Positions 13,309-54,263 of a stretch of 64,000 nucleotides of DNA are shown one piece after another. Below the pieces are notes generated by a model that saw only the letters and a program-made list of their open reading frames with translations, ran no database searches and was not told the DNA's origin. Origin of the DNA: a virus; the IMG/VR virus record IMGVR_UViG_3300028416_000501, positions 15,054-79,053 of that record. One strand, 5' to 3'. The translations under genes and the position numbers were made by a program. Each line of letters opens with the position of its first letter. Positions within the stretch are counted from its first letter, which is position 1.

Positions 13309-13337
13309 TTGACAAAACATCAAATCTCATTTATAAT
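13309..13337 (+). promoter_or_regulatory. sigma70-type promoter for pepA/Fe-S operon
   Basis: TTGACA-17-TATAAT. Confidence 0.8.
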
Positions 13338-13368
13338 ATACAAAGTAATTAAATAATAAGGAGATACT

Positions 13369-14718
13369 ATGGCTAAGGCACTTATAGTACTTGCAGGCAG
13401 TAAGCATGCAAACAAGCTAGGCAAAAATATTAAAGAAGCAACAAAGGATATGACTGAAAAGTCTATTACTGTATCATTTGCACATGACGAATACGATTAT
13501 ATTACAGTAATCAAAGACGCACCAACAACACCACAAGAAGCACGTGATTTGGGCGGAAATATGGTAAAGAAATACAAGTCAACAGTTGATGAAATTGTAT
13601 TTGATGTTACTAGATTAAATGATGTTAAAGAAGGCGCAGCATTGGCGGCATACGAATTTAACAAATATAAAACAAAACCAAAAGAAAACAAACTACAAGT
13701 AGAACCTGCAGGCATTAGTACAAGTATTAATTTTGCTCGTGATTTAATTACAGAGCCAGGTAACGCATTATATCCTGAGAAATATGCAGACCGTATTAAT
13801 GAAACACTTACACCGCTTGGTGTTAAAGTGCGTGTAATTTATCAGCGTGAACTAGAACGCATCGGCATGGACATGTTGTTAAGCGTAGGACAAGGTAGTG
13901 AGAACAACAGTGCCGTTGTTATAATGGAACACTTGCATGGACCAGAAGGCGAACAACCAATTGCACTAGTAGGTAAAGGTGTTACATTTGACACAGGCGG
14001 TATTAGTTTAAAGCCAGGTCGTAACATGGGCGATATGAAATATGACATGGGTGGCAGTGCCGCAGTTGTAGGAGCCATGCATGCTATTGCTGATAAAAAA
14101 CTAAAGAAAAATGTTATTGGTATTGTAGGACTAGTAGAGAACATGCCAGACGGTAAAGCAATCAAGCCAGGCGATGTTGTTAGATCGCTAAGTGGACAAT
14201 ATGTTGAAAACTTAAACACAGATGCAGAAGGCAGACTTGTGCTAGGTGATATTTTAACATATGTACAAAGTGAATACAACCCAGGTGCTATTATTGATCT
14301 TGCTACACTAACAGGCGCCATTGTTGCAACACTAGGCAACGAAATGGCAGGACTGTTTACTAACAGTGATGGATTAGAAAAAGCAATTATTGAAAATGGT
14401 GAGCTAGGTGGAGAAGGTTTCTTCCGTATGCCAATGGGTAAGAACTGGGCTAAAATGATTGACAGTGAAATTGCAGACTTTCAAAACATTGGTGGACCAT
14501 ATGGCGGTTCAACTACTGCCGCAGAATTTCTATACAAATTTGTAAATAAGAAAACAGCATGGGCACACTTAGACATCGCAGGTATGTGTTGGTCTAAAGG
14601 TGGGAATGCAACAACACCAAAAGGTGCAGTTGGATTTGGTGTTAAAACACTGTTCAATATTGTAGACAACACAGATAGTTATCAGTGGTTTGCAGTTGAG
14701 GAAAAAATGTCTTACTAA
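13369..14718 (+). CDS. pepA: leucyl aminopeptidase, M17 family (PepA/PepB-like)
   Basis: VGKGVTFDTGGISLK, MKYDMGG, NTDAEGRL, DLATLTGA, HLDIAG. Confidence 0.95.
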   Translation: MAKALIVLAGSKHANKLGKNIKEATKDMTEKSITVSFAHDEYDYITVIKDAPTTPQEARDLGGNMVKKYKSTVDEIVFDVTRLNDVKEGAALAAYEFNKYKTKPKENKLQVEPAGISTSINFARDLITEPGNALYPEKYADRINETLTPLGVKVRVIYQRELERIGMDMLLSVGQGSENNSAVVIMEHLHGPEGEQPIALVGKGVTFDTGGISLKPGRNMGDMKYDMGGSAAVVGAMHAIADKKLKKNVIGIVGLVENMPDGKAIKPGDVVRSLSGQYVENLNTDAEGRLVLGDILTYVQSEYNPGAIIDLATLTGAIVATLGNEMAGLFTNSDGLEKAIIENGELGGEGFFRMPMGKNWAKMIDSEIADFQNIGGPYGGSTTAAEFLYKFVNKKTAWAHLDIAGMCWSKGGNATTPKGAVGFGVKTLFNIVDNTDSYQWFAVEEKMSY

Positions 14719-14719
14719 T

Positions 14720-15022
14720 ATGACAAAAGAAATTAAACAATCAATTATTGATAATTTAAAAAACGTATATGATCCAGAAATCAGTATTAACGTATATGAC
14801 TTAGGTTTAATATATGAAATAAATATAGTAAGTTCAAACGTTGTTATTGTAATGACGTTAACAAGTGCGTTTTGCCCAATGGCAGACCAAATCAAACAAG
14901 ACGTTCATGATGCAGTATGTAGTGTAAATGGAATAGATACATGTGATATTAATATTACATTTGAACCTCCATTTGGACCAGACATGATGAGCGAAGACGC
15001 AAAATTAATTTTAGGAGTATAA
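14720..15022 (+). CDS. DUF59/SufT Fe-S assembly protein
   Basis: [26 protein letters not shown]. Confidence 0.9.
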
Positions 15023-15023
15023 A

Positions 15024-51576: not shown

Positions 51577-51605
51577 TATACAATATAATTGGAGTTTTAT
51601 ACAAC

Positions 51606-52436
51606 ATGACCCGTATCGCTAAAGATATTATAGCAGGAAACGACTTCATTGTCAATGTTTTCGATGCTAAAACACACGACCTAACAGACAACACACAACT
51701 ATACGAAGCATTTGAAAGTGGTTGGCCAGTAGTTATTAAAAATTTAACTATTCCACAACTTGATTATGAATACTATGATGATCTACCAGACTGGACTATT
51801 CCCGATAACAAATGGATTATGCCCTGGTACAATTCTCACATTAAAAAGCGTGAACGTATGCGTAGTGAACGCAATTGGACAGAAGAACAAATAGACTTGT
51901 TTCATAAGAAACACAAGCAATCTAACAATGGTTGGAATGAAGTGTTTGATATGTTGTTCCCACGTTACAAAACAACTGAGCGTATGTTGAGTCACAGATA
52001 CAATACATTAGTAGAAAATAAATTACACTTAGATGAACTAGATGAACAACATACAGGCAACGAACAACAAATACGTATGTTTGTACAGTTAGATAAGAAA
52101 CGTCCTAGAGTATTATCATTTGGTCCTGACTTAGAAAAGATGTATTACGATTATAAAGATGAATTTAAATTAGAGGAATTAGATAAAAATGACATACACA
52201 AATTTATTACTGACATGCGGAACCGTTGCGTGTGGAATGAGCAGAAATGGGATCAGTTTCACCACCCCCTTCATTATATTACATTCAATCCTGGTGATAT
52301 CTGGTTCTTTAACGCACAATGGATAACACATCAAATTGTGTTTGGTACAAAGTTACAATGCTTTGAAGCTGATATATTAAATGAAAGTTTAATCAAACCC
52401 GAGTTGTGTATGAGAGAGCGTATTAAAAATCTATAG
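51606..52436 (+). CDS. Kdo-hydroxylase (KdoO)-like Fe(II) dioxygenase
   Basis: KLHLDE (HxD), RMFVQLD..RPRV, FNPGDIWFF..THQIVFG; GGAG RBS before ATG 51606. Confidence 0.6.
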   Translation: MTRIAKDIIAGNDFIVNVFDAKTHDLTDNTQLYEAFESGWPVVIKNLTIPQLDYEYYDDLPDWTIPDNKWIMPWYNSHIKKRERMRSERNWTEEQIDLFHKKHKQSNNGWNEVFDMLFPRYKTTERMLSHRYNTLVENKLHLDELDEQHTGNEQQIRMFVQLDKKRPRVLSFGPDLEKMYYDYKDEFKLEELDKNDIHKFITDMRNRCVWNEQKWDQFHHPLHYITFNPGDIWFFNAQWITHQIVFGTKLQCFEADILNESLIKPELCMRERIKNL

Positions 52437-52471
52437 ACCAATTACATTCCCACGCCTGGGCTCTTGTTAAA

Positions 52472-53725
52472 TCAAAGGTCTCGTTTAATTCTTTCAAATT
52501 CGGGCGACACTTTGGTAACCAAGTGTTTTCTGTGTTTGTCGTAGTTTTCGGTAACTTGAACATATTGGCGCATGATGTCAGCATCATACTTATGCTCAGG
52601 ATCCAAACTAAAGTTAACAAGTTCCATAAGAGGTTCTTCATATTGCTCAAAATGTGGACTGTTACCAATACTTTTGAGAAATTCCAAAATCTGTTCACGT
52701 TGTTCTTCTTTCAACCATTCAGGAGCATGTGCCATACTGTAGTATGCAGGCTCTACTAACTGGTTAGTACTCATACCAATGCCTCTATTACTAGTCATCT
52801 GATAATCATGCATAAACTTCCAAAACTTGGCTATATGTAATGCATTAGTCATTTGGTTTACTGTAGTAACACGTACCTTAATACGCTTACCTTCTTTTGT
52901 GTCTGAGAACTTAACTAACTTATCAAAGTTCTTCCATACACTTGCCCACTTACTTGGAGGTCTAAGATAATCATTCATATCTTCCATTCCTTCCAATGAG
53001 CAATTTACAATTACTTTTTCAAACTTGGCTAACTGATCAAGCCAACGGTCTTGCATGTTAGTTATGTTTGTGTAAAAACTTAATTCAATATGCTCAGCAT
53101 GTCCACTTGAGGTTGCAATGTCTAGTAATTTAAACATATCTGTTGCTACTGTTGGTTCGCCGCCTATTAGTTTTATTTTACGAGCATGTGGTAACATTCT
53201 TTCAAAACTATCCCACTCGATTCCAGGTTGAAGTAATGCTTCTTTTTTGTTTGCAAGATTGCCGTCCCAATCAGGATGGTTCGCTCCGAGTCCGCTTTGT
53301 ACCATTGCTGCCCTCTCCACACTCACTAAGTGAGATGCTTCCTTGTTGCACATTTGACACTGCAAGTTGCATAAGTTACCAAGTCTAAAATCAAATTGTA
53401 GGGGTTGGTCAATCTCCCAATCATTAGCTGATGCGTCTGCTACTACATCATCTATTACATCTGCCCATACCTTATTTTCCCATTGGCGTGAGCTCATTAT
53501 TCCGTTACGTTCTAGGTGATGACATTCTACACACTCTGGTAATTTCTCACCAGCAGTCATTCTTCGTCTTACATCTTTAATATATTTGTGATTCCATGTG
53601 CCATCAATTCCTAATTCTTCTTGATTAACTAGTTCTTTAGGTTCTTTAGCCATGCAACAGAGTCTAAAACGACCTCCGTTATACGTACTGTATTGTACAA
53701 ATGGTAGACTGCAAAATCCACTCAT
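52472..53725 (-). CDS. N-terminal twitch radical SAM protein
   Basis: FCSLPF..RLCC..CVEC; CNLQCQMC; IGGEP. Confidence 0.93.
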   Translation of the reverse strand: MSGFCSLPFVQYSTYNGGRFRLCCMAKEPKELVNQEELGIDGTWNHKYIKDVRRRMTAGEKLPECVECHHLERNGIMSSRQWENKVWADVIDDVVADASANDWEIDQPLQFDFRLGNLCNLQCQMCNKEASHLVSVERAAMVQSGLGANHPDWDGNLANKKEALLQPGIEWDSFERMLPHARKIKLIGGEPTVATDMFKLLDIATSSGHAEHIELSFYTNITNMQDRWLDQLAKFEKVIVNCSLEGMEDMNDYLRPPSKWASVWKNFDKLVKFSDTKEGKRIKVRVTTVNQMTNALHIAKFWKFMHDYQMTSNRGIGMSTNQLVEPAYYSMAHAPEWLKEEQREQILEFLKSIGNSPHFEQYEEPLMELVNFSLDPEHKYDADIMRQYVQVTENYDKHRKHLVTKVSPEFERIKRDL

Positions 53726-53726
53726 A

Positions 53727-54263
53727 TTAGGTCATTGATAGGAAGGCATCTGCTCCCTTGCCACAGTTTTCTTTCCAGTGTTCAGCTGCATTTTCATCAG
53801 CTGAATCTGTTACGTATTTGTAACACAATAAATTCTTAGCAAAATGTTTACATACTTTAGCAATTGCGTATGCTTCCATGTCTACAATATCGCTTTCTAA
53901 TTCAGGTTTTTCTTTTACAAAGTTATCACCTGTACTTAATGTATGTGGACTAGTTCCGATAACAATAGTGCCTGGTGTACCTAATTCTTCAAATGGAGTA
54001 ACACCTAAAGCTGATACAGGTCTTGCATCCATGTCACGTTGTTTAACTTGTCCTACTTGTACCAGCTTATCTACTAGCTCGTTATTTAACGAGCCTGCTG
54101 TTCCATAGTTAATAACAGTTTCACAATCGTGTTGTATGCAAGCCATTGTTGCCCACATTGTTGCGTTAATCTTTCCTACACCAGTATACCAAACTTGATA
54201 CTCACTTGAATCTAAATCGTGATCTGGTAATTCGTCTTTTAGTGCTACTAATATATACTTCAT
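53727..54263 (-). CDS. mtnN: 5'-methylthioadenosine/SAH (5'-deoxyadenosine) nucleosidase
   Basis: VALKDE, TGVGKINA, INYGTAG, STGDNFV, VDMEAYAIAKVC, KYVTD.AD. Confidence 0.88.
   Translation of the reverse strand: MKYILVALKDELPDHDLDSSEYQVWYTGVGKINATMWATMACIQHDCETVINYGTAGSLNNELVDKLVQVGQVKQRDMDARPVSALGVTPFEELGTPGTIVIGTSPHTLSTGDNFVKEKPELESDIVDMEAYAIAKVCKHFAKNLLCYKYVTDSADENAAEHWKENCGKGADAFLSMT

Follow-up and report, generated by a model that had tools for sequence, protein, structure and literature searches.

Candidate helper genes for radical SAM enzymes in a family of marine jumbo phages

The stretch of DNA analysed here (the window: 64,000 nt, bases 15054-79053 of the 79-kb viral contig IMGVR_UViG_3300028416_000501) comes from a marine jumbo phage. 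It combines 16 genes for radical S-adenosylmethionine (rSAM) enzymes with seven genes for iron-sulfur (Fe-S) carriers, a ferredoxin, adenine phosphoribosyltransferase (APRT), phosphoribosyl pyrophosphate (PRPP) synthetase and a nucleosidase of the type that acts on methylthioadenosine (MTA) and S-adenosylhomocysteine (SAH). We consider it rather probable that the seven genes are helpers for the phage's own rSAM load, which would provide cluster delivery, electrons, removal of 5'-deoxyadenosine and the return of adenine to adenosine monophosphate (AMP). The set is a dispersed and variable accessory kit, neither a single operon nor self-sufficient. The most telling clues, each taken by itself, are that the nucleosidase gene sits within an rSAM operon and that APRT and nucleosidase form a conserved cassette.

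The contig is 23% complete according to CheckV, from which a phage genome of roughly 350 kb follows. A Pfam search of the window also found a family B DNA polymerase (PolB), a T4-type clamp loader, ClpP and a cell-wall hydrolase. By PolB, the nearest cultured phages are only 44-48% identical (Agrobacterium phage Atu_ph07, Sinorhizobium phage Phosso, E. coli 121Q-like phages and a 349-kb Vibrio phage), and megablast of window positions 13300-22000 against reference phages gave no match. A PolB search retrieved hundreds of viral contigs. Two groups are used below: a near clade with 69-98% PolB identity, which comes from marine samples and consists entirely of fragments, and a far clade with ~58% identity, in which G014 (347 kb) and G015 (364 kb) are complete with terminal repeats and G013 (349 kb) is 97% complete.

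Support genes and radical SAM genes of the window

All seven support genes named in the original prediction were recovered by profile searches and motifs. With window coordinates, they and the rSAM genes are:

14690-15022, plus strand: DUF59/FeS_assembly_P protein, SufT-like (PF01883, 1.4e-17; probable start ATG 14720)
15024-15377, plus strand: FdxA, a 7Fe ferredoxin of the Azotobacter FdI type (NF045490, 150.3 bits against a cut-off of 135)
15688-16005, plus strand: Nfu-type carrier of 105 aa, NifU C-terminal domain only (PF01106, 3.6e-20; CxxC motif, CSGC)
16900-17424, plus strand: APRT (NF002636, 159.9 bits against 125; probable start ATG 16909)
17421-17819, plus strand: A-type Fe-S carrier of the IscA/ErpA/SufA family, called IscA below (TIGR00049, 73.3 against 58.8)
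20974-21939, plus strand: class I ribose-phosphate diphosphokinase, the PRPP synthetase Prs (NF002320, 453.9 against 297)
53727-54263, minus strand: compact MTA/SAH/5'-deoxyadenosine-type nucleosidase of 178 aa (PF01048, PNP_UDP_1, 2.2e-14)
28680-55684, minus strand: array of 15 rSAM open reading frames (ORFs) with PF04055 matches, the presumed client of the support genes
3992-5290, plus strand: 16th rSAM ORF (PF04055 match)

The nucleosidase gene lies between two rSAM genes, as had been predicted. Its start codon overlaps the stop codon of the rSAM gene at 54260-55684 (ATGA), and the downstream rSAM gene at 52472-53725 follows after a gap of 1 nt. An AlphaFold model of the protein, built with an alignment of 32 phage homologues, reached a pLDDT of 92.7, and the PDB structures among the Foldseek matches listed were all MTA/SAH or futalosine-type nucleosidases (TMq ~0.8); the enzyme is short but complete. 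E11, D128-M129-E130 and D153 are invariant in the 32 homologues, and the VDME and SD motifs align to chains of MTA/SAH nucleosidases (MTAN); E11 is equivalent to Glu12 of the E. coli enzyme by position only. The 178-aa protein is predicted to hydrolyse 5'-deoxyadenosine, and probably MTA and SAH. The curated cut-offs are missed, with 91 against 129 bits for the best model (NF004168, 'nucleosidase') and 57.6 against 169 for NF004079, and the protein is therefore filed as an MTAN-like short nucleosidase and not as an MtnN equivalog.

A scan of viral contigs with the nucleosidase alignment yielded 79 loci with the gene. An rSAM gene is found within 3 kb in 32 of these, and a directly abutting one occurs only in the near clade of the window, where rSAM genes flank the nucleosidase in five loci. 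In 46 of the 79 loci, distributed over 8 of the 14 clusters formed at 70% identity, the gene directly 5' of the nucleosidase in the same orientation is APRT, and the two overlap as a cassette. In the far-clade genome G015, homologues of APRT (34% identical) and of the nucleosidase (36%) form an overlapping pair, with two rSAM genes at a distance of 2 kb. This conserved cassette supports adenine salvage. Two further observations concern the same genes. A DUF6614 protein (1.4e-20) is encoded immediately upstream of the G015 pair (locus L098, 7667-8002; G015:C1:271666-272001), and the near-clade record G008 has, besides the short nucleosidase, a second nucleosidase/phosphorylase of canonical length (226 aa; PF01048, 2.8e-32; G008:C1:40459-41019).

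The APRT assignment is specific insofar as the next-ranked models are other APRT models and those for HGPRT, XPRT and OPRT score far lower; the PRPP loop is intact, with the acidic-hydrophobic part followed by TGG. In the window the APRT stop codon overlaps the IscA start (ATGA junction). Overlapping codons join the two genes in the near clade as well, and the adjacency is kept in all near-clade loci except L091, in which an ORF intervenes. Prs matches the N-terminal, phosphoribosyltransferase (PRT) and Prs-associated domains (PF13793 with 1e-53, PF00156 and PF14572). Its position ahead of the clamp loader is conserved in 7 of the 12 near-clade loci, and G006 and G008 carry a Prs-length ORF ~60 kb away.

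Among the Fe-S proteins, FdxA matches PDB chains of Azotobacter 7Fe ferredoxin I over the full length (E 1e-37), possesses the DUF3470 tail (PF11953, 2.5e-13), and its cysteine groups for the [3Fe-4S] and [4Fe-4S] clusters (CxxCxxxxCxxxCP and CxxCxxCxxxCP) are intact and spaced as in Azotobacter FdI. The A-type carrier has the pattern C-x(n)-C-G-C, with C33, C101 and C103 invariant across nine phage sequences, and a C-terminal tail that is specific to its phage clade; no sub-type model (ErpA, IscA or SufA) reaches its cut-off. The Nfu protein lacks the N-terminal degenerate A-type domain of proteobacterial NfuA, matching residues 105-181 of the 190-position NfuA model, and is thus an Nfu-domain protein and not a full NfuA. 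The DUF59 protein has the conserved cysteine in an FCP motif and the FeS_assembly_P domain. It stays below the SUF_assoc/SufT equivalog cut-offs (TIGR02945, 112.6 against 143.4 bits; TIGR03406, 93.8 against 202.6), and PaaD models match it likewise. Altogether, four of the seven proteins (FdxA, APRT, the A-type carrier and Prs) score above curated NCBIfam cut-offs, and the DUF59 protein, Nfu and the nucleosidase are assigned at the domain level or below equivalog cut-offs.

The predicted number of 16 rSAM enzymes was borne out, since 16 window ORFs have both the Radical_SAM match (PF04055) and a CX3CX2C motif, with 5-13 cysteines per ORF; the whole 79-kb contig has 18 rSAM matches. A SPASM match is found in about 10 of the 16. 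In at least eight proteins (3992-5290, 30699-32000, 32309-33544, 35191-36402, 38063-39286, 44789-46027, 48044-49294 and 54260-55684) it is N-terminal (~residues 12-100) and precedes the Radical_SAM core (~120-330), opposite to the usual order; this phage family may thus be characterised by a permuted domain arrangement. Between 31990 and 35191 (ORFs 31990-32322, 33510-33911, 33859-34482 and 34475-35191), short ORFs with an rSAM core (207 and 238 aa) stand together with cysteine-rich ORFs that are SPASM-like only (133 and 110 aa), which is consistent with split rSAM genes. Within the array, 40306-41061 encodes an Asp/Asn beta-hydroxylase-like (2-oxoglutarate/Fe) protein (PF05118, 2.3e-12), a hint that the array acts on peptides or proteins. 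The minus-strand coding is interrupted for ~1 kb at 51492-52471, where the sole ORF is on the plus strand (302 aa, without Pfam match) and a perfect minus-strand TTGACA-17-TATAAT is found at 51655-51627. Compact clusters of four rSAM-like ORFs exist in Atu_ph07 (NC_042013, 116.6-123.0 kb) and Phosso (PV764938, 185.9-192.4 kb), both without IscA, and these may be relatives of the founding genes of the array.

Relatives, other phages and the remaining window

A high rSAM load is a property of the family. Large near-clade fragments have 13-25 rSAM matches and the far-clade genomes that are complete or nearly so have 15, 19 and 16 (15 in G013); among all related records of at least 100 kb, only the far-clade fragments G016 and G017 (4 each) fall outside 13-25. 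IscA is present in all records of this size, G016 and G017 included, and in 17 of 22 related records overall, including every record >59 kb, with two copies in each of G013, G014 and G015. FdxA occurs in G014 and in every near-clade record whose sequence extends over the region. Nfu was found only in the near clade and is absent from some members, and DUF59 is likewise confined to it (9 of the 22 related records), always beside FdxA when present. Besides the near clade, G015 and two far-clade fragments have APRT-like genes; Prs is limited to the near clade, and the short nucleosidase is present in seven near-clade records, G014 and G015.

The original prediction called the system self-contained, which is not supported: the 79-kb contig contains no cysteine desulfurase (IscS), scaffold (IscU), ferredoxin reductase (Fpr) or SAM synthetase (MetK). 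Relatives supply part of what is missing. IscU is encoded in all five of the largest records (E ~1e-52); in the far clade it is directly beside IscA, and in G014 the IscU-IscA pair is flanked by rSAM genes. G002, whose PolB is 88% identical to that of the window, has a 404-aa IscS (4e-85; the only one in the five large records), whose neighbours are an rSAM gene on one side and a gene for a 261-aa FAD/NAD reductase (Fpr) on the other. Fpr is present in G002 and G003 (two of the five) and matches bacterial ferredoxin-NADP reductases, including Azotobacter 1a8p (E 1e-68 to 1e-74), and MetK is present in G002 and G014 (two of the five); flavodoxin was not found in the five large records. The additional helper genes of G002 and G003 are located ~55-95 kb from the Fe-S gene run, beyond the coverage of the window's contig, and the 12 smaller related fragments without IscU and Fpr do not cover that side either. 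Given that relatives have IscS, IscU, Fpr and MetK, the phage of the window may carry some of them elsewhere.

The gene order in the near clade is DUF59, FdxA, Nfu, a variable segment, APRT, IscA, MazG, further genes, ClpP, further genes, Prs and the clamp loader. It is kept down to 43-58% IscA identity, with Nfu, DUF59 or Prs absent in some loci, and in four loci (L084, L087, L088 and L089) rSAM genes are inserted in the Fe-S gene run. Across the family, pairwise adjacencies form a chain from rSAM to nucleosidase, nucleosidase to APRT, APRT to IscA, IscA to IscU and IscU back to rSAM. The prediction of a single module is overstated: the genes occupy at least three separate places on two strands, and the complement varies among close relatives.

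The helper set grows with the rSAM load across lineages, as far as few independent comparisons go. Three smaller phages outside the family (~165-175 kb) have IscA and 4-8 rSAM genes, with no nucleosidase or DUF59 and with IscU in only one. The far clade (15-19 rSAM) has IscU and two IscA, with or without FdxA, nucleosidase, APRT and MetK, and the near clade (up to 25 rSAM in half a genome) has nearly all helpers. No rSAM-free close relative was present among the relatives found.

In other phages the support genes are rare. In a reference set of 50,697 phage records, in which only bona fide matches were counted, IscA occurs in just two huge uncultured phages and DUF59 in none. APRT together with this nucleosidase is found only in the Kyanoviridae phage C48C1, FdxA in a Ralstonia and a Microcystis phage, and Nfu in the Prochlorococcus phages P-SSM2 and P-SSM5 and some marine single-cell viruses; most remaining matches are host contamination, judged by record names and annotations. 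Given this rarity, the occurrence of the support genes in the window is far above chance. Outgroup jumbo phages of similar size (349-490 kb) have 0-4 rSAM matches and no IscA.

Several other features of the window were noted. In coordinates of the window, the two that adjoin the support genes are:

13369-14718, plus strand: M17 leucyl aminopeptidase (PF00883, 4.6e-113), in the same gene run as DUF59
17833-18255, plus strand: MazG-like pyrophosphohydrolase (PF03819, 3.8e-07), 3' of IscA, with conserved synteny

The aminopeptidase was considered as a cysteine supplier and dropped; it is at this position in just three near-clade loci (the window, L084 and L086) and was for that reason excluded from the support set. 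The MazG-like protein likely has a nucleotide role and is also kept outside the set. The 304-aa ORF at 15998-16912, between NifU and APRT, was rejected as a YgfZ/IBA57-like Fe-S factor, as it has no Pfam, NCBIfam or PHROG match; its look-alikes in the atlas are viral hypothetical or glycosyltransferase-like clusters. The sole match of the ORF at 18564-19070 (168 aa) is to part of the DNA Pol III alpha NTPase domain, 25595-26035 (146 aa) is MotA/ExbB-like, at 57425-60162 a DUF2201 metallopeptidase/VWA-like protein adjoins an AAA (MoxR-like) ATPase, and 62327-63589 encodes an HtrA-like protease with a PDZ domain. At ~28.4 kb the coding direction of the window switches from plus to minus. The palindrome YAAGANNTCTTR occurs six times in the window against 0.38 expected (at 8326, 9646, 27411, 27727, 60662 and 62301); it was discarded as a shared signal, all sites being intergenic and none located upstream of support genes or inside the rSAM array. 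Counts of sigma-70-like sites show no enrichment (38 against 40.5 expected in one case, 63 against 58.8 in the other). The aminopeptidase-DUF59-FdxA run is preceded by a perfect TTGACA-17-TATAAT (13309-13337), on which no argument is based here.

Interpretation of the support set

In the scheme that we propose, a jumbo-phage family with expanded rSAM enzymes would have gathered host-derived helper genes. The A-type carrier, Nfu and the SufT-like DUF59 protein would pass [4Fe-4S] clusters to the multi-cluster rSAM proteins of the phage, with the clusters coming from a phage IscU, as encoded elsewhere in relatives, or from the ISC/SUF systems of the host. FdxA may supply the electrons for reductive SAM cleavage, a role that we regard as plausible, and would itself be reduced by an Fpr-type reductase, which is phage-encoded in two relatives and would otherwise be that of the host. 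The nucleosidase, presumably co-translated with two rSAM enzymes, would cleave the inhibitory 5'-deoxyadenosine, and probably MTA and SAH, to adenine, which APRT could then convert to AMP with PRPP provided in part by the phage Prs. The identities of the genes, their intact motifs, their order and its conservation, and their rarity in other phages are observed; all biochemical steps and the choice of clients are inferred.

The original prediction that these genes serve the rSAM array survives in part. The gene identities, their rarity, their recurrence together with 13-25 rSAM genes and the place of the nucleosidase within an rSAM operon speak for it, and a strict necessity of the helpers is not supported. 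The far-clade genome G013, 97% complete and with 15 rSAM matches, possesses only IscU and two IscA and lacks FdxA, Nfu, DUF59, APRT, Prs and the nucleosidase, and Atu_ph07 and Phosso have four rSAM matches each and no IscA. Conversely, IscA is found without rSAM genes, as in the huge phage LR756511 (zero rSAM matches) and in 13 of 20 sampled IscA contigs (>=24 kb), including a 97%-complete 57-kb phage. These cases weigh against our interpretation, and so do several more general points. Much of the adjacency chain is inherited synteny and not a series of independent events, and the co-occurrence may reflect very few gain events, because the family members share ancestry. Genome size confounds the gradient of helpers with rSAM load. 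The support genes and the rSAM array are on opposite strands ~11 kb apart, and the search for a regulatory motif shared between them found none. The region 13369-22000 was recovered from four seawater metatranscriptome assemblies of four studies (>=95% identity, most pieces >=99%), which attests presence in RNA libraries only, and not transcription, strand or level. Contigs of the assemblies X11, X17 and X18 end between ~15048 and 15686, in the interval between FdxA and NifU; if this points to the border of a unit at all, it does so only weakly. We also know of no demonstration that a 7Fe FdxA reduces rSAM enzymes.

The main alternative is that the genes are general-purpose auxiliary genes, with APRT, Prs, the nucleosidase and MazG contributing to the purine supply of a 350-kb genome, the carriers and the ferredoxin propping up Fe-S proteins of the host or other Fe-S proteins of the phage, a function that has been proposed for many marine phages, and the presence of the array a by-product of the large genome. 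Further observations that count against a dedicated role fit this explanation. In C48C1 (OQ984149, 75869-76928) the overlapping genes for APRT and the short nucleosidase, annotated as hypothetical, follow nrdA and nrdB directly, and the phage has a single rSAM match. In a cluster of 25 nucleosidase loci, 24 have APRT as a direct neighbour and none has an rSAM gene within 6 kb, and 12 contigs with the cassette (10 of them from this cluster, ~0.45 Mb in total) have only four rSAM matches. Prs is not specific, since the proteins of reference phages include a sizeable PHROG family of it (phrog_619), and it is the weakest member of the support set, although the 16 related records examined for an NAD-salvage partner of Prs contain none; extra PRT genes stand beside Prs in G002. 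In the window, the Fe-S, APRT and Prs genes are part of the replication region, with PolB on one side and the clamp loader on the other. IscA relatives are found in >571 viral loci, which adds to the rSAM-free contigs mentioned above, and Fe-S assembly genes are reported to be widespread among photic-zone viruses (PMC5332604). Against this alternative stand the coupling of the nucleosidase to rSAM genes on both sides, with an overlap of 4 nt upstream and a gap of 1 nt downstream, and the rSAM flanks across the near clade; the enzyme is moreover of the MTA/SAH type and not a general purine nucleosidase. Likewise, rSAM genes are repeatedly inserted in the Fe-S run, IscS, Fpr and IscU-IscA abut rSAM genes in relatives, and the size-matched outgroup jumbo phages do without IscA. 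We think that this alternative is unlikely, yet of sufficient weight to be taken seriously.

Counter-defence has also to be considered. In that case, APRT and Prs would rebuild adenine nucleotides after cleavage of ATP by immune effectors of the host or after MTA-releasing SAM cleavage by phage or host, the nucleosidase would feed this salvage, and the Fe-S genes would be a separate matter. Phage cofactor-regeneration pathways that act against defence are known for NAD+, the cassette is present in many phage lineages independently of rSAM genes, and Prs co-occurs with APRT across the near clade. On the other hand, no defence or anti-defence gene was identified beside the cassette in the G015 and C48C1 loci, no SAM lyase was seen, and NAMPT and NAPRTase, which could have been the NAD-salvage partner of Prs, were not found in 16 related records. 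This explanation is speculative and gives no reason for the placement of the nucleosidase within an rSAM operon; we judge it very improbable.

Known systems and significance

The idea of Fe-S delivery is not new, because Nishimura et al. 2017 had already linked phage Fe-S assembly genes to a phage with 12 rSAM genes: their 183-kb T4-like marine viral genome TARA_ERS488813_N000010 also encodes an A-type carrier, paaD (DUF59), grx and cas4, and they proposed that viral Fe-S assembly proteins act on virus-encoded Fe-S proteins (PMC5332604). The window's phage resembles that virus in uniting an A-type carrier, DUF59 and many rSAM genes in one genome. It differs in belonging to a ~350 kb class with up to 25 rSAM genes in half a genome and with gene-order links, and the 2017 report lists no ferredoxin, Fpr, IscS, nucleosidase, APRT, Prs or MetK. 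No paper was found that links phage nucleosidase, APRT, Prs, FdxA/Fpr, IscS or MetK to phage rSAM enzymes, within an incomplete coverage of the literature. What is new here is the by-product recycling cassette and, in relatives, the near-complete ISC pathway, the Fpr-FdxA pair and MetK.

It is established that 5'-deoxyadenosine is both a by-product and an inhibitor of rSAM enzymes, and in E. coli it is removed by Pfs/MtnN (PMC8102628, PMC6079011). The phage nucleosidase, which is encoded beside rSAM genes, shares with that enzyme the MTAN fold and equivalents of the catalytic Glu and Asp and of the Met-Glu ribose-binding motif, whereas it has 178 aa in place of ~230 and stays below the cut-off of its nearest curated model, NF004168. 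Unlike bacterial 5'-deoxyadenosine salvage, the phage would couple the reaction to APRT for adenine, with no sign of genes for 5-deoxyribose disposal. The APRT-nucleosidase pair of C48C1 is homologous and overlapping as well, but that phage has 156 kb and a single rSAM match, and its pair is beside the ribonucleotide reductase genes.

The phage carriers belong to the same families as the late-acting bacterial carriers (ErpA/IscA, NfuA and SufT) and have intact cluster-binding cysteines. They deviate in that Nfu consists of the C-terminal domain only, IscA has the extra C-terminal tail and DUF59 stays under the SufT-type cut-offs; their clients are putative. It is when Fe-S demand is high or under oxidative stress that NfuA and SufT are most important, in keeping with a phage of the oxic ocean that makes many cluster-rich enzymes. 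The couple of FdI and NADPH:ferredoxin reductase in Azotobacter vinelandii has its counterpart in the window's full-length FdxA and the reductase of G002 and G003. Here, however, the reductase is outside the window and its contig, and a role in rSAM reduction is putative.

Taken together, the lineage might encode a nearly complete and portable life-support system for rSAM enzymes, comprising IscS-IscU-IscA/Nfu/DUF59, Fpr-FdxA, MetK and nucleosidase-APRT-Prs; we offer this as a tentative and still rather doubtful proposition. If it were true, dozens of phage rSAM enzymes would be largely independent of the host, and a very high stoichiometric SAM turnover during infection would be expected, for example for mass modification of virion proteins, peptides or nucleic acid.

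A small concrete gain in annotation is the APRT-nucleosidase cassette, still labelled hypothetical in its one reference phage. More generally, phage Fe-S assembly genes have been catalogued for a decade as marine auxiliary genes without a clear client, and this family offers 15 to >25 rSAM enzymes for that role, as well as a testable chain from cofactor supply and reduction through SAM supply to by-product removal. If the helper function is real, the helper proteins would be practical tools for the in vitro expression of uncharacterised phage rSAM enzymes, and the family would be a case of a virus that carries the upkeep of a whole enzyme superfamily, beyond single metabolic steps.

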